From Nemertoderma westbladi (taxonomy: Eukaryota > Animalia > Xenacoelomorpha): a DNA stretch of 64,000 bases. The position numbers were made by a program, and so were the translations under genes. Location of the stretch: positions 62,001 to 126,000 of the forward strand of contig JAUCBJ010006701.1 of NCBI GenBank assembly GCA_032718475.1. The letters are read 5' to 3'. This document shows positions 7,091-64,000 of this stretch, piece by piece (position 1 is the first letter of the stretch; every line of letters begins with the position of its first letter). A model generated the notes under the pieces. The model saw only the letters and a program-made list of their open reading frames with translations, was not told the DNA's origin and did no database searches.

Positions 7091-7094
7091 CAAT

Positions 7095-31002: not shown

Positions 31003-33211
31003 TGATAAACAACCGCGACCTCTATACTAACAGCAGAACTGTTGAACAGACCAATACCCGTTAATATCCTTCTGTCAACCTAATGAGCTCTCGCCTAACC
31101 AATAAGACACAAAGAATGCTCTACTGTTAAGTAAAGGGGATCAGGAGCGTGATATTACTAAATTGTAAAGGTGGCTAAATACAAAACCGCTACTTACCGT
31201 TGGATGGCGCTAATCTGCCGTCCGCTAATATATTTTACTAAATTTACACAACTCCTGCAAAATCGCTTGTTCCTTTCTCTACCGATCGCTCGATAGAGAG
31301 CTAACTGTTCGAATCTATGAGCCACGCGGGAATAACCAAAACAATAAACCCGAGTCGGCTCCCTAAGCTTACTTAAGACGAGTGCGAGAGGCCTTGCACT
31401 CAGAGTATTCTTACGCCTAATTCTATCACTATTAAAACACGCTATTGTCTACGTCTTTCTAATCGCGAATACTGGAGGTTCCCTAACGTAATGTGTGAAT
31501 GCGAGAATATTTAAAATAATCAAAATGATACAGTAATTGTTTTTACGTGGATAGTACCACTCTGGGTCTAAACTTGCCTGCGGCTGGCTTTAGGCCAGCA
31601 AATTACTAGCGTATCGTGCGTACCGAATAGTGCGATCTAGCTGATTGCCCGCTAGTGCAAATAACCGCTCAGCGTGAATAGTTTACAGTACTCTAATTAT
31701 TACCTTAGCTACTCTCCGCTATGCTGCGTACTAATTCTTAATTTTTACTAATCAATTACAGTCACAAATATTTAACAGCGTACTAATTACTAAGAGTTCC
31801 AGAATACGTAATTCTAATTTATTACGCAACAGGTTTCGCTAGTAATAGCCTAAATTGCCGTATTACTTTGACCTAATCAGTAACTAATTATTGTAACTAA
31901 GAAATAGAAATCAATCAAAAGAAAAGGGCGCCTACCTAAACATTCATAATCATAGGCACACTTCAATAACACACCAATCAGCGTCAGAAATCACAGTTCG
32001 CAATTATGCAGTTAACTACTGTATAGCCCACAATTATGCGATTCACTACTCGTACTCTACACTCAACGTTGTAGTACGCGCAGGCCTCTCCCGGATACAT
32101 CTAGGATTCCTAACTAACCCAATTCCTGCCCCCCTAATACTAAATAGAGACAAAACCTGGATCATCAGCCCCCTAGATACTGTATCGGCGAATGGTCTGC
32201 GTGTTACAGTGCAAGTGCCCGCCCGCAACGGTGACCCCCGCCAGCGTTGCCCGCTTTGAATCCTCCGCTCTCTCCTAGTCGCTCAACCCCCCGATGTGCC
32301 CACCGCCCACTGGCACCTTAGCCCTCCATTATGCTAATAGCTACCGTAGCGGCGCATGCAAATCACAAAGTCTGACAGTCTCAGAAATCCCTTAGGATTA
32401 TTGCGCAGAAAGGAATCACATAGAACCATTAATCAAAAGTAGAAATCATAGTTCAGTTGTAATTAGCAGTAATCGAAGGAATTAATTGAGAAACACAATC
32501 GAGAGTAATCGCACTAGCAAATCATTCCAAGAAATTAATCAAAATTAGCAAATTGCAGAAAATACGCTAAAATATCCGTCAAAATTGAATAGAGACAGCT
32601 CAACAAGTACAAAGGTGATAGCAGATCATGTGAGGTGTCATGTGAGGCTCTACCGGCACACCGCCAATTTATAGGTGATCCGGATGGGGTGATGCAATAG
32701 GGTGACTCAATCGCTCTCCTATTGGCTCTCCAGTCCGCGCTAGCATTAGACCAACCTGGAAACAGTTAGTCCAATAAGGAGGCCGGATTGTAGCCCTATT
32801 GCTTGCCCAAACCTCAAATTATTACCATATATGGTAATGGTTCACGTCTCTGGCTGCTGAATGGCCAGGACAGCGTCCCTATGCTAGCCCTATCGATGCT
32901 AATATCAGCAAGCACAAAATCCAGGGTCCAAATAAACTCGCTACCCTGGAACTATCTACATATATCCTAATACAAAATTACGTAGGTAGGGCTACATACT
33001 ATACAAAATGGATGGATTCAAATATATGGGTGTTTCGATTTCCCTATCTAAATACCACTGCGTTATTATGCCTTATCTAAAATGTTATGCTGCACAACGG
33101 ACTAATATTACATACAGTATAACGGACTAATATTGCATACTGCATAACGAACTAATATTGCATACTGCATAATGACTAATATATGTGGATACAGCGCCAT
33201 ATACCGTAACA
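31003..33211 (-). repeat. 5' LTR of C, 2209 bp
   Basis: Left boundary defined by the match to 15394. Right boundary defined by CA plus TSD. Sense TATAAA at 32668-32673 and ~25-bp repeats at 33096-33180. Confidence 0.88.
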
Positions 33212-33374
33212 CAGTAGCTTTGATGATAAACTTTATTGGGTTAATAAAAATCAATCACTTCCTTGGGGGCACTATAAAACAAACCTCAAAAAACCTATAA
33301 AAATATCAAATATACCAATTTATGAAGAACCAAAAGGCGATGATGTTGATGATGAATTATCAAATAGTAAATAA
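33212..33374 (+). pseudogene. Polinton pPolB extreme C-terminus, fragment 2
   Basis: SFDDKLYWVNKNQSLPWGHYK...stop at 33374. FDDK and LPWGHY motifs continue the fragment at 15003-15393. Confidence 0.85.
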
Positions 33375-33644
33375 AAATATAAGTTGTAAGCAGATCATTT
33401 ATGGACTTAATTTAAAAGAATTAAAAAATCAATTGACAGGTAAAATTGTACTCAAACCTAATCAGTTTATATATAAGGTATTTGGTGCAACCATATTAAT
33501 GTTTACAAATGGACGAATAACAATTCTCGGTAGAAAATATAATTTTAATAAAGTGAAAAAGCATATATTCGAAAAAACAAACATTAATTTGATTTTTAAA
33601 TCAATCAATTTGTGTACTTATATTTTTAGTATCGACACCGTAAT
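33352..33644 (+). pseudogene. TBP-fold-like ORF of the Polinton, truncated by the A2 insertion
   Basis: MNYQIVNKNISC...LNLKEL...YKVFGATILMFTNGRITILG resembles the TBP repeat motif (TALIFSSGKMVCTG). It overlaps the pPolB stop. Confidence 0.6.
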
Positions 33645-33976
33645 TATTAGAAGAGATACCGTATTCCTACTAATGCGAAGAGACGGTAACAATACCTGCA
33701 ATATCCTACTGTAAAGTTTGTGAATCAAATCATAAATCCGACCTTCTCACCAAAACAGTAAACTCTAAGTAAGCGAATATATTGCAGTATCGATCTCTTA
33801 TTACCGGTGAGGCAGAAAACAGTTTACGAGCAGACAAACTTCGATAAAACAAAATCCCGCGCAGCGAATCCTAAAATCAGGCTGACTCACTGACGGACTA
33901 AGAGGCTCGTATACTTTGCCGCGGTGTGATTTATATGGTTGGGCAAAGGGACGCTAGCTAGGTACAGAGGCAGAGA
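33645..33976 (-). repeat. Remnant of the A2 3' LTR
   Basis: Direct repeat of 62648-62979. Fused by deletion to the last codons of the accessory ORF. Confidence 0.9.
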
Positions 33977-36900
33977 CGAAAACTGCGCACAGGTGACTTT
34001 GCTCGCAATATGGGACTTGTGGGGCGAGTCACTGGTTTCGTTTGGACGTTGAGAGACGGTGCGACTATTTCCTCGCAAATTCGTCTATTTGGCATCCCAA
34101 AACCTCGACCGATTCCTCGTGACCGATCAGTTGTCACTACAGTTGGTAGAACGTCTGGGAACGCGCGAGAAGCGGACGACGCAGACCCAAGAGTAGCTTG
34201 CGCCCCCTTCTGATCAGCTGGTGTGTGTCCCGATCCTCCTGTTGGTTCTCTAGGAAGCGATACCGTATCCCGAGTAATTCGAATAGTCGGCTCAGCTCCC
34301 TTGCGTTCTTCTATATTTGTTCGTTTCGTTGATTATTATATTATATTAAAATATTGATTGCATATAATTATAAAAGTAACAAAATATATTTCAATGGCTA
34401 AGGGCCAACATTGTCAATAATCCTAAAACAGTAATACTACTATATGATATAACTCTGTAAATACCTATAAAATTGAGATGTGATTGTATGATAATATAAT
34501 AATAGGCCTACAACAGTACCGGTACCAACATACGTAATGCAGTAACACATAGTGTACGGTAAATAAACTATATAAAGCACAACCTACATGTATGCAATAT
34601 TGTATGACTCCCCCCCCCCCATGTTTATTTCTATATTTTTTAATTTTGTTTAGGAATCCTCCGCCTTCAAGTACCGCTACGCTTAAATGGTCAACATCTA
34701 CTGATAGCCTTTTATTGATTGCCCGTGGGCCTAGTGATTTAATGTATAAACTTTCCAAAATCTTCTATATTAATAATTTTCTTTAATTGTTGGCCCACTT
34801 TCTGGACCCGTATGATCCTACCCTGTCCGTCCTCCCGAGGGTGACGTGCAGACGGCGCAACCGGAGTGGCTGGTATATTCGTCGCCTCTAGGACCTCCTC
34901 TTCCTCGAATATGCTCGCTCGTATACGTTTATGGTAAAACGCGGCTCGGTACGCCCATGCGACGGTTAACCAAGCTCCTTTATTCCGCTTTTCAGTTCGG
35001 AAACGATCGAATTCACCATACGTAATGCGATTAACGACTTTCTGAAAATTCCACGTGTTTTTGTTATCCGGGTGAATCTGTAGTAGATACTCGCGCACTA
35101 CTCGGAATCCACTGTCGTGGGGCAAAATATCGACTACCTCGATAAGTTCGTCATATTGGGGCATAGCGGAGATATATCCTTCCGACATCATCGTTTGGGG
35201 ATTTACCCGTTTGGGCGCCCTCATCGGAAACCGTCTTCTTTGCGCCGATACATGTTCGTCGGCTAAATCTTCCCACTCATCGAATAATTTTCTCACGAGT
35301 TTTACAGATTCGTGTTCATAAGGTATGTCTCTTAGTTGGCATTCAGATGCTCGATGCCCTTTTATATTGCAATAAGTACATTGAGCCATAAATCTCCAGC
35401 AAGTATAAAAGGTATGAGACCCTTGATCTCCACACCATCCACAGATTAGCTGAGTCGTAGTAATGTGCTTTCCACTGCACTTGGTCATATGATGTCCAGC
35501 GACGCCACATTTACTACACATCGTATTGGCAGGGTACCACACTCGTTCGTATATAAGATCTCCAATCGGTCGAGCGCTTCCTCCCACACTATAATCGTAA
35601 TCATCTGGATCTATGGGTTGGTAGGTTTCTGAAGGTTGTATACAAACTATAGCATCTGTTGCTTCAAGTTGTCGAATCTCCGTCTGAGATTTCTTCGGGA
35701 GGTTCCTTTCTATCTCAAGAAGTTCCTCTAAAGGATCGTCAGCGATCGTAGTAGTTACTTCGAAATCATCACCAAGGTGACCGATAGGCGCGCGCGTCTG
35801 CCGTGATTCATCCGTAATCTCCACGATACGTTCTCCTTCATAGGGTAACAATGTAAACATAGATGGTCTTTCGATAAGAGATCCCGCACAGCGAAGATAC
35901 ACGTCTCGAAATATACTAAATCCTGCTCGAGTAAAGGCATTACACTGAGCGTCGGAGTTGTAGAAGGGTTCAAGGAATCGTCTAAACACGTCGGTATGAA
36001 TTCTCCCTTCCATGTAGAACGTATGATCTTCTCCGAGACAAAGTGGATGTCTTTTGAGAGTCCGAGACACAATGTCGGCGATTAGGCAAACATTCACTGA
36101 CGACTCTATTGCTAAATAATATTGTAGGACCGCTCTTGGAGGTGACGTAATAGCCCAATACACGCATCCTCTCCATTTAAGCTGTGATTCAAACTCACTC
36201 ATATCTGGAGTATCACCTTCTCCATAAGTCTCAATATACTTGTTTCTCTTACTTTCCTTATAATCCCAATTGAATAACAGGTAGGAAATGTATCCAGTTC
36301 CAGTCTTCTGAGTATTATACTCACGAAAATATCACAGACCACAAAATCATAGACCACAAAATAAGAGGTCGAGTGTCGACGTAAGGTGTCGGTAGTCGGT
36401 CATCGCTGTCCGTCATGCCGGCGAAGTCGCTAATTAAGTCCTCCCTTACTCCTGATCCAATCTTTACAACAGTTTTATCTAAAATCATGTTTCTTACCAT
36501 CTTCGGTAGCATTCTAGCGTCGATATTACAAGCTTGGTCCATCTTCTTTACTATGTCAGTGATAAGATGGTGTCGCTTTGTAGTCGCTGGAGGTATCGGC
36601 ATTCGTTTGTCGCTCCTCTGTCTACTGAAAACGTGCAGGACTCCGTCCGCCGCTCTAATTTGTATAGTCTTAGAAGTCAAACTCTGCTGATGACTGCCGC
36701 CCTCGTTATCGTAAAACATGTAACCATTTTCCTGAAACGATCTAAACGTTCTATTCCATTCATCCAACAATTCTTCCGAAGGTTGCCAAATCTTCTCATT
36801 GTCCTTATCATCTTCGAAACGAATAACCTTACCTCGCCAATCTGCAGCAATATCTGTATCCGACTCGAAGGTTCCGGTTCCAATCCATAAACGAATCGTC

Positions 36901-38120
36901 TTGGTTAAATATCCTTTCAAATTACTCGGAGCTATATCGGCACCAGCTCTATCCAGTTCCTTAAAGTCTTGAATATGAGGTGGAACGTTGTACACGACCT
37001 TTTGAGTAATATGTCTACGTAAATCATATATCTTACTCATATCGCTGAAAACAACTGCAGGAAGAAACTCCAAGTTTGAAATGATTTCTGGATGATCCAC
37101 GATGGGTATTTCGTTCGTCGTATCCTGTCGGACTGGTATACTAATAGGAAAATTGAGTGTCGTACTCAATGGTTTCGTAGTTGAAGTACTATATGGTTGC
37201 ATTTCTCTTGTCCTCTCCGGGGATGCAATCTGTAGTCTCTGAATAACGTTTTGAGCAAAGTTTATGCTCTCGAAAACTTCCGGTGTCATCTCCTTAGCTG
37301 GAGTTTGATCGTGTGACGTCCAATGGTAAGGTAGGCTCGCGAGTCTTCCGCCCCATTCTTCCATCTCACCTTTCTCGAAAGCCTTGTAGGCTCTGTATAG
37401 GCTAAGAGCTTCTTTCTTTTCGCGGGTTGACTGATTTGCCTCGTCCAGCATAAGTTCAAATACATCGGGTTCAACAACCTTAGGTGGGTAAACGACAATT
37501 TCTCCCGCCTTTGGTCCGGTCATAGCAAATGAATGATATGGGTTCGATAAAGGATACCCTCCTTCCTGGTAGCGTAGTTGTTGATGGTTCGAACACCTCG
37601 CCAATATCGGTTCGGGATTTTCCTTATTCAAACGCATTGGAATCGCATTTCGTTGTTCGCGCATACAAGAACCGCATTGATAATAAAGTTTATAAACTGA
37701 AAATGCTTCCTTGGTTTCTCTATCGTCCCCTCGAGTTCGTCTGTAAAGGTGCATTCCATCGAATTCGTCTCTTACCGCGGGCATAGGTTCGTGCGCCTTT
37801 AGGTATTGCATGGTATGATACAAACGACTAATTTCAGTATCGGGGTCTTCGCTAATGTCTCCCGTATCACACAAAGCGTCGTACGGGTAAAGTTCGTTGA
37901 AGGTTTTGCGCAAACTTTCGATTCTTTCGTTTAATGCATTTTGTCTTCTCTTTAATACATTCGAGTCATATTTAGTTCTCGCGAGTTTCGCTGTACTTTC
38001 CGATAATTCCTTTATACCAAATATAGTGTAGTCCTTGGCTCCAAATCTTTCGAATGGCGCTGCTGCCTCCTCTTGGATATCATATCCCCATCTCGGCTCT
38101 CCTTGTATCCCTTTCTCCAT
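33977..38120 (-). pseudogene. Family-A accessory ORF (about 1200 aa reconstructed): Cys/His N-domain, DEDDy 3'-5' exonuclease, three CCHC knuckles, Arg-rich tail
   Basis: Motifs FYDNEG, LPKMVRNMILDKTVVKIGSGVREDL, YVDTR, QYYLAIE. Frameshift from a short duplication at ~36330-36365; insertion at 34318-34760. Confidence 0.88.
34318..34760. other. 443-bp AT-rich foreign insertion flanked by an 11-bp duplication
   Basis: TCTTCTATATT at 34307-34317 and 34761-34771. The insert is absent from A1. Confidence 0.85.
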
Positions 38121-38779
38121 AATTAGGGGTGTAGTTACATAATCATTACTACTAGAGGGAATACAACAGAGTTTGTAGTTAGTTGTGAGGAGACGTGAGA
38201 GTTTCGTCTGCCCTTTGGGCTCGACAACGCTCTAACCTCCTACCCATAGCCTAAGATCTAGGGTTTCTTTAATGACACGCTGCTTCTTATCTAAAATTTT
38301 TTGCCGAAATAAAAACGAATTTGGGCTAAACTGGCTGTGAGTCTAAAATACTCACTTTTTGATCCCAAACTATTATCAGAAAATAAGCAATCAAGAATTA
38401 GTAATAAATATAGGGGAGTCTATTTTGACGTAACTTATTGAAACAAGACCGTGTAAAATTTAATTAAAATTTTAAGAAAGGCTCGCAAGTCTTCCTCTCT
38501 TGTTTCTCTAATTTTAAGTTCCACCCGACTGTACCCTGAAATCTATTCACTGGAGAAAATTTTAAAAATTTTTCAAATCCAAATGGATTGTCTAAAATTT
38601 CGAAAATGTCTCAATATTGTGAGTTCCAAGTAGAATTCCATTTCTTATACCTACAAATCCCGCTCCTATGTGACACATAAGGGTACCACCCTCAATGTTC
38701 ACATATAAAGACAATGGAATTCTACCGCTGTCCTTACTACGGTGTACAGGTACGTGGAAATCTATTTGTAAACTCCTAA

Positions 38780-41700
38780 TTATTTACTAATATTAGGTGG
38801 AGATTTGTAGTCTCCAGAATCGTTACGAGTCTCTTCAAGAAGTACGAGACGTTGAGTCGGTCTGTCTACTGTACGACCGTCAATTGTCCGTACCGTCACA
38901 GTTCTTGTCACTCCATCCATAGATGGATGTGTGGCTAAAATTACACCTGTTATCCAGAAGCGTCTTTTTAGATTCACTTCCGCTAACAGCACGTGATCTC
39001 CCGGCTTTAATGCGCGGGTGTTATTGTACCAGTTTGTTCTGGCAGAAATAGAGGGCAAATAATGGTTTTGCCATATTTCCCAGAATTTGTTAGCCAGTAG
39101 TTGCGTGATTTTCCACGCTTTTCTACCGTAGCTATCGCCTTCTATTGGAATAGAAATAGGCGTCAAAGTCGTCGGTGCCTGCATAAGCAGGTGTGCCGGT
39201 GTTAATGCAAACTGGGATTGTTTGTCATCGGGTACTAATACTATTGGTCTAGTATTTAGTATTGCCTCGATTTCAACAAACAATGTTGTCAGTTGGTCGT
39301 CTGTCAATATGTGGTTTACTGGAATGACCTTTGCCATGGCTGTCTTTATAGATCTAATCAATCTCTCCCAGACTCCGCCTCTCCATGGACTATCTGGAGG
39401 ATTAAACTTCCAAACAATCTTGTAAGGACGTAGTTCGTTTGAGATTTGATCATGATCTAATTTCTTAAAGGCTCTAGCAATCTCATTTCGAGCACCAACA
39501 AAGTTTGTCCCTTGGTCTGAGTACAAGCATTTCACTAGTCCGCGTCTAGCGATAAATCGCCGCAATGCTAGTATAAACGCGTTGGTAGAAAGATCCATCA
39601 CTCGTTCAATATGAACTGCCCTACTGGACATACATGTGAAAATCAGTCCCCAGCGTTTTACTAGTATACGTCCACGTTTCGTATGTATGGGACCAAAGCA
39701 ATCAATTCCAGTCTCTGTAAAAGGTGGTCTGAATGCTTGAAGTCGTGCTTGTGGAAGTTCACTCATTTCTTGGGTACCTATTCTAGAATGTACCTTTTTA
39801 CAAATAATACACGTACGTGTCACTGAACTTAATGCTTTACTGGGTCTAATTAATACAAATCTTGTACGTAAGTAGGAAAGACAGTGGTGTCTTCCAGCGT
39901 GTTTCAGATGTAAATGTGCGTCCAGTATCATTGCACGTTGTAGTTCGTGATGTTGCGGTATTATTATTGGGTATCTAAAGTTTGTGTTAAAGTCAATGTT
40001 TTGAAGCCGAGATTTATGACAAATTAAGCCATTATAAATAATCGGACTCCAACTCAGTATTGGTGACGACTTGATTGGTTGACCTTGATTTATAGATGTG
40101 AATTCGCGCGCGAAATATCGCAGTTGGTAATGGCGAATTAATTTAATTTCACACCTGTCAATCTCAGCCAATGTAAGTCGACGTGTAAAGTCGCGTTTGC
40201 CTTTAACGTATTGTACAAAACGTACAATCCACGCTAATTTTCGGCAAGCGTTTGTCCAAGAGTCTGTTAAGTTTACAATACGGTCGACGTGAGTATTTGT
40301 GACGTCATCAGGTAAGTCAATGGAGATTTTGGAAGGTTTTGATTTACTAGAAGGGCCCACGGGTCCGCCGGTAAGTATTCCCTTGTTGACTGTTGATCCG
40401 TCCGGGTCTACAAGTAATTTGTCCTTCTTCGTCTTCCTACCTTGGTTGTCAGTACTTTGTAAGTCGATCGTTAATGGTGGTTTGAACTCTATGGGGTCAC
40501 TGGGTTTCGGTAAACTTAATTTTCTGCCGATATTAATCCCAGGTTTCACCATAGGTTGCAAGTTCGGTATGTCTCTTGAGCGCAAAGTAACACCTGTATT
40601 TACATTAGCGTAGGTACTACCCACATCTGTAATACATGAGGTTTCACCGTGCTTGTGGTTGCTCAAGTGTGTCAAATTTGGTAGTTTGTCAATACAAGGC
40701 CGCTCCAATAGGGAAACTGCGGCTTTACTGTTTGTCAATATGTTACTAGTGTCTGGTAGAACATTTTGTGACATGTCTGGTAAAATGTTTCGCGGAACAT
40801 CCGGCGAAATATCTAGTGACGTGTCTGGCAAAACGTCTGGTTGACCGTCTAGTAACGTGTCTGGCGATACGTCTGGTAACGTATCTGGTTGTTTGTCAAT
40901 AGAAGGCCGCTCCAATAGAGAAACTGCGGCTTTACTGTTTGTCAATGCGTTACTAATGTCTGGTAGAACGTCTGGTTGACCGTCTAGTAACGTGTCTGGT
41001 TGACTGTCTAGTAACGTGTCTGGTTGACCGTCTGGCGATATGTCTGGTGTAGAAAGGCTCGCAAGTCTTCCGTTCTTGACCTTTGAAGTTATATCTTTCC
41101 ATTTCGCCTTCGGTTTCTTCTTGAGTTTAGCCGCCGTCTTTTTCTTTGCTTTCCCTTTCTTTGGTTTTTTGATTTCCGCGTCTTTAGGGATAGTGTTAGA
41201 CTTGTTGTCATATAGTGGTGGCCAATCTTGTGTCGATTTCTGCAAGAATTGGGGTCCATGTTGCCAAAATTCTTTGTTCTCCGGTTTACAGAATTCCTCA
41301 GGCATCATTCCTCGCGACGCAATATCGGCTGGGTTTTGTGGTCCGGGACAATGTCGCCAATCTTCCTTTATTGAACGGTCTAGAATTTCCGCGCGACGGT
41401 TAGCTACGAATGTCTTGAATTCAAGTGTGTCGTTGTTTATGTAAAATAAAACCAACGTCGCGTCAGTCCAATAAAATATCTGTAAACTTGACTGTAGTTC
41501 TGTCTGTATAAGGTTCACGATGGTGGTTGACAGGGTTGCAGCTTGTAGCTCAGCTCGTGGTGTCGTCATATACTTAGTAGGCATTGTTTTTGCCTTAGAA
41601 GTAATGAGCGAAACATCGAATTCTTCTGAGTCTACTTGTCTGCGCAAGTACGCAGCCACACCAAAACCGTTGTCACTGGCGTCAGAAAAACAGTGTAATT

Positions 41701-49850: not shown

Positions 49851-50349
49851 TACACTCGCTCACCTGTAGGGTGGTGCCTTACCAAGGCGCAATACAGATG
49901 AGTGATGTATTAAGATGTTTCGTACAGTTCGATAATGGCCTACTTTTCTACTTAACTGCGCCTTTCAAGCTTAATTTAATCTAATTAATTTCGGAGCTAG
50001 TAAATCAGCCTAATTTACAATTTCCGTCCGTTACTTTTATTATGTTCTAGAACGACTTTCTTTGTGTTACCACTATTTTCCGATTTTAGCCCTATTCTAT
50101 TTATTTGTTTATTTTGCTTTGATTCTACTGTCCTACTACTTACTACTGCCTATGGATTTATTCTATTCTCTCTCTGATCCATATTCTGGCCTACTCAGTG
50201 GGCCTATGCAGTACAGCAGTATGCGTCGTGTGGCCACACGATTTATCCAGCTGCACTCATATGCCCCCCTCTCGCTACTAACTCTACTTACTGCTAACTA
50301 ATATCTATATCCTATTTACCCCTTTTACCTCTTACTCTCTCTCTCTAAC

Positions 50350-51329: not shown

Positions 51330-54300
51330 TTAAGGTGCCCCTTCTAGAAGACAGCATTTACCTACCGCTCTCCTGTAGGTTTTTCTGTCCTTCGCACCTA
51401 TCTTTCCACCTATCCGCACTTCTACCGATCGGACTCTTCCGTCCTCGTCGGAGTAGGTGCCTACAACTCTCGCCAACCGCCACTGGTTGTTGATGATAGT
51501 ATCATCCGTGACGATTACGAGATCTCCCTCTCTTAACTCCCTGTTCGGCTTCCTCCACTTGCTCCGCTTATGGAGTGTGGGTAGGTATTCCTCTACCCAC
51601 CTCCTCCAGTATTCTGCGCTAATTGCTTTAGCTACTTTCCAACTTTGGCGGGAGTGTATATCATCTGGGTCTACACCCCGCATATCGATGGTCGCTGGCC
51701 TTTCCATCAGGAAATGGCTAGGTGTTAGCACGTCTAATGACTCAGGGTCATCATTCTCTGGATATAGCGGTCTGCTATTAATGATCCCCTCGCACTTCGC
51801 AAGTACTGTCCGTAAGACGTCTTCAGTGACCATGTGGGTGTTCATCAGCTTCGTCATTAGACGTTTTGAACTGCCCACCAGTCTCTCGACGCATCCTAGT
51901 GTATGTGGTGCATACGGCGTCCTTCTCTCCCACTTCACTTGTCGTCTTCTCATGGCCGCCCTGACTTCTTCTCCCTCCAAGATGTCTAAGGCCTCTGCCA
52001 TCTCACTCTCTGCGCCCACAAAGTTGGTGCCGTTGTCGCTATATATCACTGCGATCGTCCCACCTTTGCGGTCCCTAAACCTTTCTAAGGCGTTAATGAA
52101 TGCTGATGCGGTTGCATCTTGGGCGAGTTCTATCCCTACCGCCCGCGTATTGTTGCATACGAAGATAATACCGTAGCGTTTCTCCGTGTGTCGCATCACC
52201 TTGATCTTTATCGGCCCGAACATGTCCACACCGCAATGCGTAAATGGCGGGTCGTGCTGTCTTACCCTACTCGCCGGTAGTGGCGCCATCTCCTGTACGG
52301 CTCGCTCCTTCTTCGCTCGTCGGCAGGTCTGGCACTGCCCCACTACCGCTTTCACCTTCTTCCTTAGTTGTTTGACCCAATAGGTCCTCCTTATCTCTGT
52401 GAGGGTTCGGTTGGTGCCCCCATGCAGTATCGATTTGTGGGAGTCCCATATGATCTGGTGGACTATAGGCGATCCTGTGGGAATGATGATGGGTTTCGGT
52501 GGCACGACTATACTGTTGTTATATCCCACCCTAGAATTCATTACTAGAATCCCATCCTCGTTGAGTTGTGGCGACAGCGTGATCAACTCGCTATCCCGTC
52601 GGAGGTGCTGTTGGTTACCGACGCGTTCCACCTCGTCGCCGTAGTTCTTGCGTTGTTCATAGCGGATCACTGCCTTGGCCGCTCCTTCCAGATCTATGGT
52701 TATCCTGGTCTTCTTGTCCTTGCCGACTCCCGCAAGGAAATTCCCAAAGGCTCTCCAGTACGCCACTAGTTTCTTGGTCTTATACCAACTGGAACTGTAG
52801 CTGAGGAGTTTATCCGTCGGGTTGTCGCACAGTTCCCTTCCTGGTTGCACGTCCCTAATCTCCCTCACCATCTGGGAGTATATCTCTTCTCCCTCTGAAT
52901 CTCCCTCTTCTCCTTCTGATACTGGTTCCGAGCCCGGGTCCACCTTCCTCATCGGCGGCCAGGCCTCTCTATCGCTCAGAAATTGTGGCCCATGTTGCCA
53001 CAATACTTCCTTCTTCAGGAAAGTGTGGCGTTCCACGCCCCTCGACAGCAAGTCCGCTGGGTTCTCATCTGTTGGGCAGTAGTGCCACCTTTCCAGTTCT
53101 GTGCTCGCCCTTATTTCGTCCACTCTATTCGCGACGAATATCGGGTATCTCGTCTTTTCGTTGTGTAGCCAACCAAGCACTACCATGGAGTCCGTCCAGT
53201 AGTGTGTCTCCACTATGTTGGGAATTGTATCCACTAGGTAGGCTGTGGCTCTAACTCCTAGTCTCGCAGCTGTCAATTCTAACTTGGGAACAGATGCTGA
53301 ATCTGGCGGCGTTGACTTAGCTTTGCTAAAGGCTAGTCTGGGCTTGTGAGGCCCCTCTCGTTGTACTAAATAGAGTGCCGCTCCGTATGCCTCTAACGAC
53401 GCGTCGGAGAACATATGTAGGTCCAGATTCGTCATGTTCCCGTCCGGGAAATACACTCGCGGCATGTTGTATGTTCCCATCCTCTCCAAGTCTCCTGTCC
53501 ATTTGCTCCACTGTTTCTTGATGTCTTCTGGTACCTCTACGTCCCACTCATCCTTCAACTTATATACTCTCTTGAGTATCTGTTTCCCCGTGACTAGTAA
53601 TGGGGATGCTAGGCCTAAGGGATCGTATATCCTTGCTATATACGATACGTAACCCCTCTTCGTATGGGTGTCTGCGCCCTCCTGGCTCAGCTGATACTTC
53701 AGTTCGTCTGTTTTTCTATCCCACACGATTCCCAACGCCTTCTGCTGGGATTCCGTTCTCTTAATCGCCATGTCCTGTCCTTTGGCTGTTGTAGGGTTGT
53801 CCATGGTCGATTCTGGTTTCTTGTCTTCTATTTCCCTGATAAATTCTTCTGAACTGGATTGGAATTTGGTCAGGTTGAAGCCGGATCCTTTCAGGATGTC
53901 GCGAACCTCGCGCCCTGTTTCCAGTATCTCCTCAACCGTATTTCCAGACTCCATGCCGTCGTCTACGTAGAAACCGCGTCTGATCATATCGACGGCCCTA
54001 CTGCTGTATCTATCTTCCTTCCCCTTTACCGTGTCTCTCACTGCCATAGTCGTCGTAAATGAGGACGACTTGGCCCCCATATTTTGTACTACCATCTTAT
54101 ATGCCGGTATTATAGGCGGTTCTTCTTCGCCGTTATACCATAAGAAGCGTTGACTGTCGCTATCTTCCTCTGTTACTCGGACTTGGTTGAACATGCCTTC
54201 TATGTCACACGTGAAGGCGTGTTTCCCATTCCTAAATCTAAGTAGTACTTCTATGCCCGAATTGTATATGTTTGGGCCCTCTAGTAGGTAATCGTTTAAG

Positions 54301-56618
54301 CACTTTCCGTCGGTCTTTGCCGATGCATCGACTACCATCCTAAGTTTACCTTTCTTTGGGTCTAAAGCTACGTGGAGTGGCAGGTAGTATGTCCTGTCCG
54401 TGTTCGGTTCGTCGACCGGTAACTCCACGGCCCATCCTTTCTCGACGTACTTCTTAATGGTTTTGTGAATGTACTCGTTCTTCTCGGGGCTCCGTTGTAG
54501 TGTTTGTTTCAGCTTGCGGAGTCTCGTGAGTACCATCCCTCTATTATCGGGTAGCGGTATCTTCGGTAGTTTCCATACCATTCCTATTGTATACCGCCCC
54601 TCATCACACGTCATCGATTCCTCCACACTTTGTAGAGCCTGCTTGTCTTCTACCGAGGTCCCGACCCCGGTCTCTTTCAGTCCCTCGAAGTCCTGTCTGA
54701 GCAGTCTTTTAAGCTGCTCCTCTGCTCCCTCGTCACCCATTTCCTGCATTGTTCCCGCGAACATGCATCCTGATGTCTCCGACATCCTGAATGGTATCTT
54801 GCTCTTAATTGGACCACTCAGCGTCCACCCGAATGGCGTTAATATGGCCACCGGGTCGCTCTGCTTGTCTTCGCCGAAGACCGTCTGCATTCTCTCGTGG
54901 GCCGTTGGGCAGTCCATGCCTACTATGATGGATACCTTCCTAACGTCCACGTCTGGGATTGAGAAGTCAATGTTGTCCAGGAATTTGTATTGCTCGACCT
55001 CGATGTTGGTTGGCCGCCTGGCATTGATGTTAATTGACTCTATTACTTGGATGGGGTCGATGGTTGCCCCATAATCGCATCCTGGTGCCACTGCTGCAAT
55101 TGCGCACCGTCCTGTCCTCATCTCTAGGATCTCGTCTTTGCTAGAGATGGTTGTCACCGCCATCCTGCTTGGCCTCGTTCTCAACCCTATTTCTTCGGCT
55201 ACCCATTCCTCAACTAATGTGAAGGCAGCTCCACTATCAACCAGCATTAGTGTTGTTACTGATCGATTGCCTTCCCCGATCACTCGTACTGGTACTACTC
55301 CAAGTAGCACTGTTCCTCTCTTCTTCGCCCCTACTGTGCTCGTTGCCATCGTCTGGCCTCTCCTTTGGCCAAACTTGACCGGTTTCTCTTGGCATTCCCT
55401 GGCCTTGTGTCCACTCTTCACACATCGCGAGCAGATTTTATTGCTCGACGCGTAATCTATCTGGTCTTGCCTCGGTAGCGCCTGCCAGTACCTGCAGTTC
55501 ATGGTTTTATGAAGCGCATTTGCGTGTAACTGGCATTTGCTCTTTGGGTCATAGCCCTCTTTATACAATGCATTGCGTATCGCAGTTATATTCGTACCAA
55601 AGTCCCTACTATTCTTATTGACTGGGTTTGACCTACTGGACGTACTGGGGTTATGTTTATTCATGTTGTTATTGTTCCCCTGTCCGTCCCTTGATGTTGT
55701 CTTATCTTCGTTTGTCTGTGGACTTGCAGTCCCCTGCGTCGCTGCGTATGGCAATGATTGTCTGAGCCTCGGCAATGCGTTTGATGTATTGTGCTCTGGT
55801 TTGGGCCTGTAATGATCTGTCTTTGGTCCCTTTCCCAGGCTATCTTCACTATAGACTGGGTCCGTTATTAGTTCAGCCTCGTAATTTAAGAAGTTTGACA
55901 TTTCTTCTAAACCTGGTTCCGCACCCTTCTTGTCTCGGGTGGAGAAAGCGATCTTCCTCCATTTGTTGCGCAGCCAGCTCGGTAGTGCCTGCGCTATCGT
56001 GGTGATGTTATTGGACGCGTTGAGTTCGTATGGCGCGTCTAGCGTCTTCAGCACGATCAGCGCCTTCTCGACTTTGTTAGCAAACGTCTTAATGCTAACG
56101 GGATTATCCTGTAGGCCACCCGATGTTATGCCTCTCAGCGTTTGCCTGATGATCTTGGCCGGGTGCCCGTATTCCCTATCCAGTGCCCGCCATGCTGTCG
56201 TGAAGCCGCCCTCTATTCCCTGGTATTGCCTCACGATGTCGTATGCTGGGCCTCCCGTGTACACTTGTAGATACTTTAGGCACTCCGCCTGCGTCAAGTT
56301 TTTTGTTAGTATTTCGTTACTATACATTCGCCGAAACTGCAAGTATTCTTCCGGCCTGCTCCCATCGAATTTGAACGGTTCCACGGGTGGTAATTCGATC
56401 CTCGTTTTCAACGCATCGATCAACGTGGCCATCCCCATTGCCTGCGCTTCTAATGGATTCGACGGATGCTGTATAGTTTCCCCTGTCTGGTGCGGTTCGT
56501 CCGTCCTATTTCTTGATCTTCTCTGACTCGGATATGTCATCGGGGGTAGCGGCCCCCTCCATATGTCTGTATCACACGACCTGTTTTCGTCCAAGGGTTT
56601 CACTGTTCTTGCTACCAT
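51330..56618 (-). CDS. gag-pol: D Gag capsid/knuckles, protease, RT, RNase H, integrase (uninterrupted 1762 aa)
   Basis: Motifs PFKFDGS, CSRCVKSGHKAREC, LVDSGA, FYVDD, FSDAS, HGG...CQTC, GVDMFGP, SDNGTNF, YWRRWVEEYL. Confidence 0.96.
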   Translation of the reverse strand: MVARTVKPLDENRSCDTDIWRGPLPPMTYPSQRRSRNRTDEPHQTGETIQHPSNPLEAQAMGMATLIDALKTRIELPPVEPFKFDGSRPEEYLQFRRMYSNEILTKNLTQAECLKYLQVYTGGPAYDIVRQYQGIEGGFTTAWRALDREYGHPAKIIRQTLRGITSGGLQDNPVSIKTFANKVEKALIVLKTLDAPYELNASNNITTIAQALPSWLRNKWRKIAFSTRDKKGAEPGLEEMSNFLNYEAELITDPVYSEDSLGKGPKTDHYRPKPEHNTSNALPRLRQSLPYAATQGTASPQTNEDKTTSRDGQGNNNNMNKHNPSTSSRSNPVNKNSRDFGTNITAIRNALYKEGYDPKSKCQLHANALHKTMNCRYWQALPRQDQIDYASSNKICSRCVKSGHKARECQEKPVKFGQRRGQTMATSTVGAKKRGTVLLGVVPVRVIGEGNRSVTTLMLVDSGAAFTLVEEWVAEEIGLRTRPSRMAVTTISSKDEILEMRTGRCAIAAVAPGCDYGATIDPIQVIESININARRPTNIEVEQYKFLDNIDFSIPDVDVRKVSIIVGMDCPTAHERMQTVFGEDKQSDPVAILTPFGWTLSGPIKSKIPFRMSETSGCMFAGTMQEMGDEGAEEQLKRLLRQDFEGLKETGVGTSVEDKQALQSVEESMTCDEGRYTIGMVWKLPKIPLPDNRGMVLTRLRKLKQTLQRSPEKNEYIHKTIKKYVEKGWAVELPVDEPNTDRTYYLPLHVALDPKKGKLRMVVDASAKTDGKCLNDYLLEGPNIYNSGIEVLLRFRNGKHAFTCDIEGMFNQVRVTEEDSDSQRFLWYNGEEEPPIIPAYKMVVQNMGAKSSSFTTTMAVRDTVKGKEDRYSSRAVDMIRRGFYVDDGMESGNTVEEILETGREVRDILKGSGFNLTKFQSSSEEFIREIEDKKPESTMDNPTTAKGQDMAIKRTESQQKALGIVWDRKTDELKYQLSQEGADTHTKRGYVSYIARIYDPLGLASPLLVTGKQILKRVYKLKDEWDVEVPEDIKKQWSKWTGDLERMGTYNMPRVYFPDGNMTNLDLHMFSDASLEAYGAALYLVQREGPHKPRLAFSKAKSTPPDSASVPKLELTAARLGVRATAYLVDTIPNIVETHYWTDSMVVLGWLHNEKTRYPIFVANRVDEIRASTELERWHYCPTDENPADLLSRGVERHTFLKKEVLWQHGPQFLSDREAWPPMRKVDPGSEPVSEGEEGDSEGEEIYSQMVREIRDVQPGRELCDNPTDKLLSYSSSWYKTKKLVAYWRAFGNFLAGVGKDKKTRITIDLEGAAKAVIRYEQRKNYGDEVERVGNQQHLRRDSELITLSPQLNEDGILVMNSRVGYNNSIVVPPKPIIIPTGSPIVHQIIWDSHKSILHGGTNRTLTEIRRTYWVKQLRKKVKAVVGQCQTCRRAKKERAVQEMAPLPASRVRQHDPPFTHCGVDMFGPIKIKVMRHTEKRYGIIFVCNNTRAVGIELAQDATASAFINALERFRDRKGGTIAVIYSDNGTNFVGAESEMAEALDILEGEEVRAAMRRRQVKWERRTPYAPHTLGCVERLVGSSKRLMTKLMNTHMVTEDVLRTVLAKCEGIINSRPLYPENDDPESLDVLTPSHFLMERPATIDMRGVDPDDIHSRQSWKVAKAISAEYWRRWVEEYLPTLHKRSKWRKPNRELREGDLVIVTDDTIINNQWRLARVVGTYSDEDGRVRSVEVRIGGKIGAKDRKTYRRAVGKCCLLEGAP

Positions 56619-59600
56619 CGGGGTATATTGTTGATATTGTGATGGGGGAATGTCACCCTGTCCCCCCCCCCACCGGTATGTCTGGTACTGGGGTTGATGT
56701 TAATACGTTGGGGCCCATGCACCTATCCGCAATAATTCCCCCCTCCCCTGGGTATATGTTATGTCCCTGCATGCTGTAGTCATACTGCTGTGCTGGTACC
56801 GGTATAGGCCTATCAGCTTCTGGCCTACTCGCCGGTATGTATTCCGCGACTTCCGGGTTTAATCCCGTTGTCCGCGCTATCCTATCGCCTACATTGCCTC
56901 TCTCAGTATGGCCTACGGTATGTGCAGTAAGACCTACAGTATGCCCTACAGTCTGCATGTGTTGCTCGGGATCGAAGTTTATTCTTCTCGAATAATCCTC
57001 CCCGCGGCTACCGTATTCTCGATCGGTAGGTACATTCCGTCGGAAAGTTTCTCTTCGACCCCCCTCTCTACTGTTCTCTTCTTCGTACCGGTACATCGCG
57101 TACCCCTCTCTCGGCGTGTAATGCGTCTCACCGGATCGCATCCCTCCGGGGCGACGGCAATCTCCCGGAGTCCGACCCCACTGACTCTCCGTTCTCATCT
57201 CGATTACCGACGGCTCGCTGTCCGTCCTCGCTCTTCTATCGTTTGCGGCGATACTTCTACTACTCTCTTCCTCTCTTCTCCTATCAGTGGAATATTCCCG
57301 CTCACGAGATCTCTCGTCGACCTCCCGGTTAAACCCCACTGTTCTTCTTTCCTCCTCTGATCGGGCTCGACGCTCCGTCTGCCCTCCCGCGACGTCAACC
57401 TGTCTTTCTCTGCTCGATCGCACGTCGCTGGGGATACTCGCAATCCCCCTATTACTTTCCGTCGCCGGTTGTTGCGGTTTACCTTGTTCGGCCCTCGCAT
57501 TGTCCGCTGACGGCTGTGGGACACTCTCTGCCCCCCCCCCTCTCGCCGCTAACTCTCTGTTGTGGGGCCCTCGTAGCCCCCCCCCACTCGCTACATCTAA
57601 CTTCGCTACCTCTCTCCCCGCCATTATATACCTCTCTAGTCGACACATCAACCCTACTACAGTCGGGTCTATTTACCCCCCCTCTCCCTCTGCTATTGCG
57701 TGGCCTTCCAGGCCCTCTACTCCCTGCCTACCAACTACGTGGCCTACCAGGCCCTCTGCTCCTTGTCTACTAACTACGTGGCCTACCAGGCCCTCTTCCG
57801 GCTGGTTATGTAGGCCCGACGTGTTCACATTAATAGCACCCATATTGGAAACGGAATTAATTTGCTCGTTCGAAACAAAATCATTCGTATTATTCTGCGC
57901 GACTACGTTATCTGAATTATTTTGTAAATTCGGGCATGGATCATTATTTAAATTATTTGGATTATTTTGCGTAATCGCGTTATTTAGATTATTTAGTAAG
58001 TTCGAATTTGGGTTATTATTTTGATTATTTAAATTATTTTGCGTAATTACATTAATATTAGAATTATTTTCTACATTAATACTAGGATTGTTCTGATTTA
58101 AATTTAAATTACTACCACTAGGTAAAGTATTTCCTGCAATAAAGGTTTGATTAGAGTTATCCCATACGGTACTATTAATATCAACAACTTCTACTGTACC
58201 ATCATTATTACCCCCCCCCGCCCGTACGGTCACACCAGTTTTGGGTCTGTCGTGCGGTCCCTGTCAGTGGGGTATTAATAAACGTATCTAGGGCCCCCGG
58301 GTCCTCAAAAATACTCGAGCCGGCCCCGCTTGCAGACGGCGACGCTTGCGCCAGTCGCAGCTCGTGCGCCCGTCTAATCTTATGTTCCGCAAGCACACTT
58401 TGGCGTCTCTTTATTTTCTCTTGCTCTCGCTCAGCCTCTGCCCTTCTCTTCTCACACTCCTGGGTGTCCCGACTGCCCGACTCTACTATACTCCTAGCGC
58501 TCTCCCTTCGTCTCGCCTCACGCTCTTTGCGTTCCTTTTCCCTTCTCGTCTCATATTCCTTGCGTTCCTTTTCCCTTTTTGCCTCACGTTCCCTGCGTTC
58601 CCCGTCCTCCCTTTCCTCACGCTCTCTGCGTTCCCTTTCCTCCCTTTCCTCACGCTCTCTGCACTCATTTTCCTCTATTTCGTCTCTCTCCCTAAGGCTT
58701 CTCAAAGCTCTTTCGACCCTCTCTCCGGTCTCCTTAATCAATTCCGCTTCCCTCATTAACCGCACTCTCCCCTCCTCTAACCGTTCCTCCATTTCCTTCT
58801 GACCTTGCTCTACCACGTTGAGACGGTATGCGGCACCTATCTCTCTCACCACTCTTCCTTTCGCGGAGGATGTAGCAGACTTATCGGTTGCGACGGACCC
58901 CCTCCGCCTTCCCGACCTACTAACTTTCCCCCGCTTCCCGGAACTTTCTCCGACCGACGAGGCCGAATCCTCGCGGTTAACCTCGGATTCGCCCCCCTCA
59001 GGTCCCCTCCAACCCACTGGTTTTACTCCCCGGGCATCGACCAAGTATGGCCCTATGTACACTGGCGCTACGCTAGGTTCCATACTCCCACACTCCCATA
59101 GTTCAAACAGTTCGCCTGCAATTCCCTTTGCTCTCTCCCCGGCTAGTTCTCTCTGCCCAAAACGTATCAGGTAATTTAAGTGTCTGTCCGACTCACCTAG
59201 TCGCTTTCTCAGTCTCACCTCGTCTACCTTCGCCCCTTGCTTCTTGGCGTCGTTTATCAGCTTCCGGGTCGCGTTGTAGGCCCGTCGAAGTCGGTCAGAA
59301 ACCCCGACGTCCTCGTCGCCGACCTCTCCTCCGTCCCTCCGGGTCCGACGTCGTACCGGCGGCTCCACCGTCGCCGTTCCGGTGGGCCGCTCGTCGCCCT
59401 CGGCCTGTAGCTGGCCGGCGACATCGGTACCGATCTCTCCTCCGTCTCTTCGCGTCCGGCGTCGCACCGTCGGCCCCACCGTCGCCGTTTCGGTGGGCCG
59501 CTCGTCGCCCTCGGCCGGTAGCTGGCCGGCGACATCGGCGCGCCGTTCTCCGTTCCGTGTCGACTCATCTCCTTCTCCCTCCGTCTCGCTCTCCCTTTCC

Positions 59601-59761
59601 CTCTGCTCGACTTCGGGTTCCAGACCCTCCTCGTTCTGGACTTCCGGTTCGCCCGTTATCGATGGCTCCGGCGTCGTGGGCCTGTATCGCTTGGTCGCGG
59701 CCTCGCGGATCGTTAGGTCTTCGTCCGGGGTCCGCGGCGGTGTCTCGCCCGATTCACTCAT
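56619..59761 (-). pseudogene. gag: D Gag N-terminal ~1000 aa (acidic/coiled-coil, Asn-rich, disordered), frameshifted at homopolymer runs
   Basis: ORF pieces 58208-59761, 57673-58233 and 56653-57651 break at poly-C runs near 58211, 57676 and 56662. Colinear with B. Confidence 0.85.
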
Positions 59762-59831
59762 CTCGTCTGCTCGGTGGAGTTCGACTAGCTAGCGTGGGGT
59801 TCTTTGAGTTTAACTAGGGCGGCAGCTCGGA

Positions 59832-59840
59832 TTTAGTTAC
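59832..59840 (-). promoter_or_regulatory. Non-tRNA PBS of D (sense GTAACTAAA)
   Basis: Complement of LTR sequence at 60008-60016. Confidence 0.75.
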
Positions 59841-60388
59841 TGTGACGGGATCCAAGAGGGATCCCGATTTATCCGGTTGTGGTAATTTAGTCCACGCGTC
59901 CCCGCCGTGTATAAGGGTGAAATAAAGTGACTGAGTTCTGAAGTTCGGTGTATAATAGGATAGTTCATAGGATATAGATATTGTGAATGTGTACAAGGCG
60001 GGATACGGTAACTAAAGTCCCGTGATCCCCTATCTAAACTAATTGGCTATTATCCTACGCTAGCACTGCTGCACTGAGATGACTGAATCACTGGTAATAG
60101 TTACTGCCAAGTGGCTATACTGCACGGTTGGCCTTACTTACTACCTCAATCGATGCCGTTGCCCCCCTCTGATTGGTTGTTACCCTTGTTGGCGCCCCGT
60201 GGAGTATTCCCGTTCACTCCACCTGTTCTCTCTGGGTTAGGGGTTTGGCCCCTGACCCTCCGTTGTGTGCTTCCTTCCCATTCTTATTGGGATGGCGCGA
60301 GTTGGTTAATTGCCCAATCTCGCGGCTCCCAATATTGCTTATCGGCTAATAACTTTATGGGGTGTTGGCGGGATTGAATAAGCTAACA
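59841..60388 (-). repeat. 5' LTR of D (548 bp)
   Basis: TG...CA termini, followed by the TSD. Confidence 0.95.
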
Positions 60389-61838: not shown

Positions 61839-62636
61839 TTCGGTAGTTGTAAGTCAAGTAAAGTGAGTGTCAAAGTATCAAACTTACCGTATTTTATCTA
61901 AACGGTACTAATTACAGTCATATAAAATTAGCCTACCGGCCGATTTTATAGCAGATGGATAAAATTAGCCTAAACGGCCAATTTTACAGCAAATAAATGT
62001 CACGGAATAAGTATATAATAAAATTAGCCTAGCGGCCAATTTTATAATAAATAAATCGGATAACGATATGCGTTATCAAAAGGTAAATTAAATACAATAA
62101 TTACGGACTAATTCAGCAATGAACAAAGAAATCATACGGAATGCATAAATACTTGAGACAGTGGAACCCACAATAATTTTAACTAATACGGTAATGCCTA
62201 ACTTATTTATGCAACTTTTCGAACTCACCCACTCCAATAATTCTCCAGAAAAACAGATTCCCACATACAAACCGGACGTGAACCTTTCCGTTTTCAGCGT
62301 TGCGGACGAAACGCGATTTTCCCAACCAAAGTTGTTGAGTTATCTATCTCCCAAACTTGCTAATCACGGTCTTGCTCCCGTTACAGTCTAGAAATGAGTT
62401 CTGAATCCTGAAAAACAAAAGAGTTAGGTTTTGCTTTTACGAAAATTTTGTACCGGTACAATATGGTATTTAAACCCTTTTAAACACCGGTATTCAATTC
62501 CAAAAATATTTTACACGCGGTTCAAATCAAATTTTATTTCAAAAAATTAGCACTTAGCTAATCAAATATAAACTTTTACCTCAAAATACAAAATTTTCAA
62601 ATAACTTTAGTCCTACCGAACCGTAGTTCAGTAAAA

Positions 62637-62647
62637 CATATTCCTAC
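62637..62647 (-). promoter_or_regulatory. Non-tRNA PBS of A2 (sense GTAGGAATATG)
   Basis: Abuts the LTR end at 62648. Exact 11-nt complement of LTR sequence at 63701-63711. Confidence 0.78.
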
Positions 62648-64000
62648 TATTAGAAGAGATACCGTATTCCTACTAATGCGAAGAGACGGTAACAATACCT
62701 GCAATATCCTACTGTAAAGTTTGTGAATCAAATCATAAATCCGACCTTCTCACCAAAACAGTAAACTCTAAGTAAGCGAATATATTGCAGTATCGATTTC
62801 TTATTACCGGTGAGGCAGAAAACAGTTTACGAGCAGACAAACTTCGATAAAACAAAATCCCGCGCAGCGAATCCTAAAATCAGGCTGACTCACTGACGGA
62901 CTAAGAGGCTCGTATACTTTGCCGCGGTGTGATTTATATGGTTGGGCAAAGGGACGCTAGCTAGGTACAGAGGCAGAGATTTGGAGATGTCTAACTAGCG
63001 GGCAAAACACAGTAAGGACGAAAGTTAATTTTATATATTTTGAGGTGTAAATAATTTCTAACGCGCGTGTGTTAATTCTGAACGGTCAAAAGCAGTTTTG
63101 CTCCTTCACATATATAATTACTGGGTACGGTGTGCATTTTACGAATATTCTAATTTTGTAACTTGTAGGTCCAATACTCACGAATGATAAGGTTCCTTCC
63201 CCTCTTGCGTATTTCCAGGACTCAAATTCAGGCATAAGGTTAATGCTACGCCCAGAATTCGGCAATTTTTAATTTACCAGGCCCCTAATACTAAGAAGAA
63301 ATGTGTTAGTTTACTACAGTAGGCGTACGGTTACTAATAGCTATCCTGGCTCTTGTCTAGAATTTTAGTCACCTAGGTAGGCTGGGTAACTTCCTATTAG
63401 GACGTTGGCGGGGACACGGTAGATGTTAGTATATCCCTAATAGCCTCAATTTATTTGCGCCTAGTTGTAAACTGCCCTACCGCCTGAACGGTACAATCCC
63501 AATTCAGGTGAAACACAACGACCCTCCTAGCCTACAAGTTCTAATGCAATGGACACCGTTGTACTGCAAATAGTCACAGACGCACCTGCACTTAGCAAGA
63601 GTTAGGCGTACAGTTTGCTGCACCCTACCAATGTGTATGCCTTGTACCGGTGTGCCTACGTCCTATCTGCGTACTAGTATCTGCCTGCTCTCCTCCCCCC
63701 GTAGGAATATGAAGGTCTACTGTGGTTTTTTCCTGAATCAAGACAGTACAGTCCCTAAGATGTAATTTTAGGCTCACAGCTTGTCACTACTTCTACCTTT
63801 GATCTTTGGTCTTACGCTTAGGTAGCAAGGCGTCGAACGCTGTCTAACCTTTCAGGCGATGGGCGAATAACTAAGGTGGTATTGCGGGTTGTCTCCTGTC
63901 TACATTCCTTTGATGTTCCCGTTCATTGCTGCGGCCCGATCTCTAGCCGGCCATCCTGTTCCTAAGAGTGTTCACCGTAGTGAATCATGGTGAAAAGAAA
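62648..64000 (-). repeat. 5' LTR of A2 (partial, >1.35 kb)
   Basis: Matches 33645-33976 directly and 5781-7090 inverted. Confidence 0.87.

Follow-up and report, generated by a model that had tools for sequence, protein, structure and literature searches.

Nested BEL/Pao retrotransposons of Nemertoderma westbladi: probable self-priming from an internal LTR site, and an accessory gene that resembles an exonuclease

The DNA analysed here, referred to as the window, is a 64,000-nt stretch of contig JAUCBJ010006701.1 of Nemertoderma westbladi (assembly GCA_032718475.1, positions 62,001-126,000 of the forward strand), and it was found to consist of nested BEL/Pao retrotransposons of the long terminal repeat (LTR) type from three families, A (copies A1 and A2), B (copies B1 and B2), and C. 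These elements are real and unusual; they make up a BEL/Pao lineage that likely primes itself from an internal site and carries an accessory gene resembling an exonuclease. All positions are in window numbering, and features lie on the minus strand unless the plus strand is stated. B2 is complete and is inserted within the gag of A2; its 5' LTR is at 59841..60388, its gag-pol at 51333..59788 is made of several open frames, of which 56699-51333 holds reverse transcriptase (RT), RNase H, and integrase, and its 3' LTR at 46065..46602 is preceded by a polypurine tract and has a primer site that ends at 46232. A1 is a 3' half on the plus strand and is inserted in B1, the 5' LTR of which is at 14472..15002. 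The 5' LTR of A2 (62648..64000, ending AATA) runs past the window edge, the A2 gag-pol downstream of the B2 insertion is at 38783..46064, and the 3' LTR is cut down to 332 nt (33645-33976). C has a 5' LTR of 2209 nt (31003..33211) and a 3' LTR cut down to 775 nt (15394-16168). The start of the A LTR was not placed and this LTR is at least about 2 kb long, while the LTRs of B and C are bounded by TG...CA and target duplications of 5 bp are found around B2 (ACAAT) and C (TACTG). Matches to Peptidase_A17, which covers the RNase H region, DUF1759, which is gag, DUF5641, and Integrase_H2C2 in A2, B2, and C confirmed the BEL/Pao pol, protease and RT are also present, and the RNase H acidic motifs were found in A, B, and C. 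In the RT-RNase H region A and C are 59% identical and B is 33-35% identical to either, and the best identity to database proteins is 38%, the database matches being mostly elements of aquatic animals.

In each of the four 5' junctions (A2, B1, B2, and C) the LTR is followed at once by a primer-binding site (PBS) that begins with GTA and not with TGG, and by this start none of the four is the 18-nt complement of a tRNA-Arg or tRNA-Gly 3' end that is given for belpaovirids. Each PBS is complementary to a site in the LTR of its own family that ends in UAC, and the match begins exactly at the LTR boundary in 4/4 junctions. At this offset A2 has 11 Watson-Crick pairs (candidate primer core 63701..63711, PBS 62637..62647), B1 has 10 (core 14644-14635, PBS 14471-14462), and B2 has 9 (core 60008..60016, PBS 59832..59840) followed by three more past a bulge and then by an imperfect rod, and in C the complementarity is 12 nt long with one mismatch and one G-U pair (core 32071..32082, PBS 30991..31002). 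When the LTRs were shuffled with dinucleotides kept, the observed score was reached in 12 (A2), 41 (B1), 40 (B2), and 83 (C) of 2000 shuffles; the A2 PBS matched the LTR of A1, in which the primer site of the 3' LTR is at 6063..6073 on the plus strand, more weakly (237 of 2000 as good). Each PBS fits best on the LTR of its own family, with 10-11 of 12 positions matched within families versus 6.5-9 across families, and the PBSs of the sister families A and C have only GTA in common. Two differences separate B1 from B2 here, one T in the primer run and A/T at position 10 of the PBS, and pairing is kept in both. In C, about 109-nt leader repeats (30486..30899) contain copies of the LTR end and PBS at 30894 and 30785, and these PBS copies pair better with the primer than the first C PBS does. 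The first-pass annotation had placed the primer site of A and C about 1.05-1.07 kb from the LTR end, and this agrees with the distances in A2 (1053 nt) and C (1068 nt), is slightly more than that in A1 (1021 nt), and does not extend to B (163-167 nt). A near-copy of the B PBS is also present in U5 (14510-14521 and about 59885-59896) and co-varies with the true PBS; it is possible that it is a switch or a decoy. ARAGORN and Rfam (E up to 0.5) detected no tRNA or ribozyme within the window, so there is no support for a tRNA-like primer encoded by the element or for a self-cleaving ribozyme of a known kind. Separately, upstream of the A1 TATA box there is a tRNA-like stretch at 5306-5379 on the plus strand with motifs that we take to be A-box- and B-box-like, which ARAGORN and Rfam do not call; a contig of run X1 spans 5224-5591 with 10 differences, so another copy has this stretch too.

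The sequence next to the primer core was also predicted to pair. In both copies of B, bases +1 to +11 after UAC pair with a segment of U5 through 10 paired bases with one A bulged (pairing probability, P, 0.73-1.0; 0.8-1.0 for the B1 stem). In B2 the primer:PBS helix (P 0.89-0.98) continues straight into this stem to form a junction, and the stem that closes R-U5 (59897..60007) is made by pairing of 60007-59997 with 59906-59897; for the U5 mate no segment pairs better than +1 to +12, with 0/340 others as good. In A the predicted helix pairs about +5 to +14 after UAC with the U5 end. In A2 the G/A-rich segment just 3' of UAC (63688..63700) pairs with the last U5 bases (62648-62663), the last 16 nt of U5 find their best match in the +1 to +20 segment (0/1211 as good), and the junction window is better than all 1167 distant LTR windows, while for the same segment of A1 1/1849 others is equal or better; one position of this helix is G-C in A1 and A-U in A2. 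In C it is the leader-repeat junction that ranks first (0/2009 as good). Pairing extends 5' of the core as well. In A2 a second helix of 7 bp (63716..63722), formed with leader sequence immediately 3' of the PBS, reaches 22 nt upstream, and in B there is an imperfect rod about 55-70 nt long. From the complementarity and these folds we favour, with about even confidence, the reading that the elements prime themselves through an internal cut in their own RNA, likely made by RNase H, and that the exonuclease is separate and has another job.

Where the primer site lies on the transcript was examined from promoter and poly(A) signals. The earlier estimate that it is some 475-590 nt downstream of the best TATA box was borne out, the distance being 474-484 nt in A1 (5589 to 6063-6073) and 586-602 nt in C (32673 to 32082-32071). 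The A1 box is TATAAAA at 5589..5595 on the plus strand, with CCAAT boxes at 5450-5510 and an initiator (Inr)-like site at 5612; there are seven TATA-consensus matches in 5100-7094, and the choice of the best one rests on this CCAAT and Inr context. The C box at 32667..32673 is the sole strict match in the LTR and has a CCAAT at 32725. B has no strict TATA match; a CCAAT, together with an Inr-like site some 73-78 nt upstream in both of its 5' LTRs, was used to place its likely start. As the first-pass annotation had supposed, the primer site is thus probably not the transcript 5' end, for the TATA box of A and C lies about 480-600 nt before it, and the likely start of B about 70 nt before it. 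Downstream, AATAAA is found 250 nt past UAC in A1 (6323..6328, plus strand) and 248 nt past UAC in C (31818..31823) in the same local context, yet the A and C LTRs have no significant nucleotide similarity. If AATAAA is the poly(A) signal in A and C, the primer site falls within R and is present at both RNA ends, and then cutting internally near the 5' end and using the 3' end would each be possible on paper. To that extent the proposal in the first-pass annotation that the RNA's own 3' end reaches the PBS keeps its footing in A and C, and in B2 neither LTR has A[AT]TAAA.

These positions bear on the plain Tf1 geometry, in which transcription would start at the first base of the primer, or splicing would bring the cap near it, and RNase H would cut after about 11 nt. 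The perfect match stops at 9-11 nt, which is near the 11 nt of Tf1, and the 5' end of the A primer resembles the pattern that we take to be an initiator. Against this, there is no TATA box about 30 nt upstream of any primer site, in A and C the CCAAT-TATA arrangement stands about 480-600 nt upstream, and the pairing continues upstream of UAC, as far as 22 nt in A2 and about 55-70 nt in B. Each primer core is one uninterrupted run in the DNA and hence a primer built by splicing was set aside, and no strong splice donor was found between TATA and primer in A1 or C. Contigs of run X1, which may or may not derive from RNA, had no splice joint in the LTRs and did not cover the A primer site; as contigs do not reveal RNA ends, they count neither for nor against. 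We consider this geometry unlikely for the elements of the window.

The accessory open reading frames (ORFs) of A, B, and C are homologous, A and C being about 50% identical in the exonuclease part and B 22-26% identical to them. The only intact copy in the window is that of B2, an open frame of 850 aa (47310..49859) with an RNase D-like exonuclease domain at about 49600-48850 and CCHC knuckles at about 47990-47820. The A2 ORF (34742..38231) has an N-terminal domain, an exonuclease-like domain, and CCHC knuckles, with a frameshift near 36324-36370; the C ORF (16166..18454) has an in-frame stop at 16910-16912, a His in ExoI, and a deleted 3' end; and the A1 ORF has lost 2 kb through the exonuclease domain. 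CCHC knuckles are found in the A and B ORFs. The N-terminal domain of about 470 aa in A and C (36822-38231 and about 17075-18454) is 39% identical over 512 aa and has no Pfam match. For the exonuclease-like domain itself no Pfam or PDB match was obtained, and several other comparisons point the same way. ESM Atlas gave PF01612 clusters (0.94 for B with 24/30 matches, and 0.90 for C), NCBIfam gave DnaQ epsilon over the A ExoI region (E 0.0076), and hhalign against a profile of 10 RNase D/PolA sequences gave E 5.4e-4 with a probability of 30%, covering only ExoII and the following DT motif. When the window was scanned in six frames with the RNase D/PolA profile, the exonuclease regions of C and B came top of 516 segments but not significantly (E 0.38-2.7). 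Two AlphaFold models had predicted local distance difference test scores of 33 and 36, too low for comparison with the DnaQ fold, and fold searches were uninformative. The ExoI DxE and the ExoII D are present in A and B, His replaces the first ExoI acidic residue in C, and ExoIII is Yx3E, not Yx3D, in A, B, and C. Taken together this convergent but modest support gives moderate confidence that the ORF encodes an RNase D-type (DEDDy) exonuclease-like protein. Searches for homologues of the exonuclease found none among 2228 and 7984 candidates and none in phages, one match being dropped because it was driven by repeats. Between A1 and A2, the ratio of nonsynonymous to synonymous substitution rates (dN/dS) is 0.09 and 0.11 in the ORF parts flanking the exonuclease domain and 0.14 in the integrase region, and by this comparison the accessory ORF is under purifying selection. 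We do not use the damaged ORFs of A2 and C as evidence that exonuclease-dead copies transposed; A2 also has a stop in gag, so the ORF lesions may be later than the insertion, and complementation in trans is also possible.

Starting from the complementarity, its family specificity, the flanking pairings, and an ORF under purifying selection, which are all read directly from the DNA, a probable sequence of later steps can be proposed for self-priming through an internal cut. BEL/Pao families A, B, and C likely prime reverse transcription with their own RNA, using the LTR-internal site on the PBS. The 5' part of the transcript would fold so that the UAC site sits on the PBS and the bases 3' of UAC are paired beside the PBS, and a Tf1-like junction would close a loop of about 165 nt in B or about 1.05 kb in A and C. 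RT/RNase H would then cut at the junction after UAC to give the primer 3'-OH, and the primer would be longer than the 11 nt of Tf1, about 70 nt in B and several hundred in A and C unless it is spliced. Minus-strand strong-stop DNA would jump to the 3' R, whose predicted reach in A and C is about 270 nt beyond UAC. Copying of the primer by plus-strand synthesis would keep the PBS and the LTR site matched. The exonuclease-like ORF would be a separately acquired accessory gene that acts, as a conjecture, on other RNA ends such as host small RNAs or released RNA fragments.

Several results weigh against this reading. In global folds the primer:PBS helix has P 0.0 in A2 and C and 0.03 in B1, where forcing the helix costs 2.7 kcal/mol and the PBS-like copy in U5 competes for the primer and sequesters it in the predicted fold. 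The first junction of C is ordinary (335/2023 distant windows as good) and its flanking helix is not significant (127/2067), and in a 50-nt junction scan neither B1 (32/345 as good) nor B2 (87/362 as good) came first. Without the core, the upstream rod of B is modest, since 21 and 9 of 500 shuffles were as good, and the upstream pairing of A2 and C is not above shuffles. The phylogenetic data count in its favour, within limits. A quick IQ-TREE search of 63 rows, made up of A2, C, B2, and 60 of 120 RT-RNase H homologues, placed A2, C, and B2 on one side of a branch and the 60 relatives on the other (Shimodaira-Hasegawa-like approximate likelihood ratio test, SH-aLRT, 96), and in this tree B2 is flagged as a long branch. 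Scans for related loci found none in viral contigs and 6 loci in metagenome contigs, which at 1.1-5.0 kb were judged too short for an LTR-PBS junction and ORF3; these scans and the homologue searches gave no further member of the clade, and none lacking either trait, so that the self-primer and the exonuclease may not be independent of each other.

The first-pass annotation had joined the two traits into one system. It proposed that the PBS is bound by the 3' end of the genomic RNA or by RNA derived from the LTR, and that the element-encoded exonuclease trims this RNA to UAC, possibly after a nick downstream; we rank this below the plain Tf1 geometry and regard it as improbable, and the same low standing applies to the broader two-part system in which self-annealing of the internal site and an RNase D-like exonuclease with CCHC knuckles that finishes the primer at UAC have replaced tRNA priming. 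What speaks for trimming is that both traits occur in all three families, that the accessory ORF is under the purifying selection described above, that the primer site within R in A and C would be present at the RNA 3' end, that the lack of A[AT]TAAA means that the B2 3' end is made in some unusual way, and that DEDDy ORF3s have been suggested to process the 3' ends of element RNA in the available part of Rodriguez et al. 2017 (PMC5408684). The co-occurrence is true as a count, but the three families are not independent, given the branch that sets them apart from the 60 relatives, and may represent one origin; a single inheritance of both traits is enough to explain 3/3. Pairing is predicted right after UAC, so that a 3'-5' trimmer would be expected to stall 11-14 nt short of UAC, and the stretch to be trimmed off in A and C would be about 270 nt plus the poly(A). 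Terminons carry related DEDDy ORFs yet are not LTR elements. Finally, the Tf1 primer is made by RNase H alone as far as the available part of PMC7175516 describes it, and RNase H acidic motifs are present in A, B, and C. The claim that the exonuclease makes this end is for these reasons not upheld. Least probable is priming by a host RNA such as a tRNA fragment or small RNA, with the LTR-PBS pairing serving as a regulatory or packaging structure, for although belpaovirids are given a tRNA-Arg or tRNA-Gly PBS by the International Committee on Taxonomy of Viruses (ICTV, PMC8742986) and the PBS-like copies in U5 (B and A2) and in the leader (C) could be switches, the PBS starts with GTA and not TGG, the match begins exactly at the LTR boundary in every junction, and one host RNA cannot explain PBSs that in A and C have only GTA in common and each fit their own LTR.

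Some other features of the window were observed. C and A2 look young, as their LTRs differ at 3/775 and 1/332 positions, respectively, and the 3' LTRs of both have lost U3, the primer site, and the polypurine tract through internal deletion. Recombination or gene conversion is suggested for B2 by its LTRs, which differ by 29 substitutions and several indels even though the target duplication and the long ORFs are intact. The LTR end of A is AATA instead of CA in three junctions, and in A2 (62648-62690 and 33645-33690) it is duplicated as an LTR-end variant, 9 nt of PBS, and a second LTR end, an arrangement that A1 lacks. A fragment of a non-LTR-type RT (RVT_1, DUF6451) lies on the plus strand at 22481-24397, antisense within the gag-pol of C, and a tandem-repeat tract is present at 50277-51213 between the pol and the accessory ORF of B2.

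Self-priming has been described for the Tf1/sushi group of gypsy elements, with a 5'-terminal primer of 11 nt. If self-priming through an internal cut is true of the elements described here, a BEL/Pao primer that lies tens to hundreds of bases from the cap would extend self-priming to another retrotransposon family and would raise the question how RT selects an internal cut. If instead the exonuclease finishes the primer, a DEDDy ORF3 of a retrotransposon would for the first time have a known job, and reverse transcription would be started in a new manner; such a coupling of exonuclease and primer would surprise, and the present evidence leans against it. B2 offers a compact (about 320 nt), well-folded predicted RNA together with an intact exonuclease-like ORF, which makes both the priming and the role of a DEDDy ORF3 testable in vitro. 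A literature search limited to open-access papers found none on BEL/Pao self-priming or on a retrotransposon primer matured by an exonuclease. Cer7 of Caenorhabditis elegans, of the BEL/Pao group, has reportedly been proposed to encode its own primer; that primer is said to be a separate tRNA-like sequence in an env-bearing element, unlike the primer sites found here.

When compared with known systems, the elements resemble Belpaoviridae in the DUF1759 gag, the protease, RT, Peptidase_A17, H2C2 integrase, and DUF5641, and in the TG...CA LTRs and 5-bp duplications of B and C; the DAS motif cited here for RNase H is the same as that described for Sinbad in the available part of PMC554778. They differ in that belpaovirids are given a PBS of 18 nt that pairs with the 3' end of a tRNA-Arg or tRNA-Gly of the host (ICTV, PMC8742986) whereas no tRNA-type PBS is found here, and in that the LTR is 2.2 kb in C and at least about 2 kb in A versus 0.2-1.2 kb. 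The accessory ORF recalls that of the bdelloid rotifer gypsy-like elements Juno and Vesta, where, from the parts of PMC5408684 and PMC6431247 that were available, a DEDDy ORF3 was gained at least twice and is common to Terminons; the authors suggest a role in 3'-end processing or silencing, and PBS or priming has 0 occurrences in the available part of PMC5408684. The likeness to the ORF3 of Juno, Vesta, and Terminons, so far as those parts describe it, is that of an RNase D-like ORF that occupies the env position and is altered in an acidic motif, and the differences are the BEL/Pao context, the CCHC knuckles (A and B), and the N-terminal domain of about 470 aa (A and C); the acid pattern is D-E-D-E here versus DEED in the rotifer ORF3 as given there. 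The closest parallel in priming is with Tf1, Tf2, and Tj1 and the wider Tf1/sushi group, in which a stretch of about 11 nt in the LTR of the element itself is likewise the complement of the PBS at the LTR end. In Tf1, according to the available parts of the sources, a central primer:PBS duplex is accompanied by duplexes of PBS-adjacent sequence with the LTR downstream of the primer (bioRxiv 10.1101/2022.12.06.519325), and RNase H cuts between bases 11 and 12 (PMC7175516). Of this "pretzel" one flanking duplex is predicted here, which ranks at the top in A and B (in A1 it is beaten or tied by one) and is not significant in C. The pol of the Tf1/sushi group is that of a Ty3/gypsy chromovirus whereas it is BEL/Pao here, so the elements of the window are not members of that group and may work alike; and where the Tf1 primer is the RNA's first 11 bases, the candidate primer here appears internal, about 70-600 nt from the predicted start, with an R-U5 loop of up to about 1.05 kb and an extra exonuclease-like ORF.

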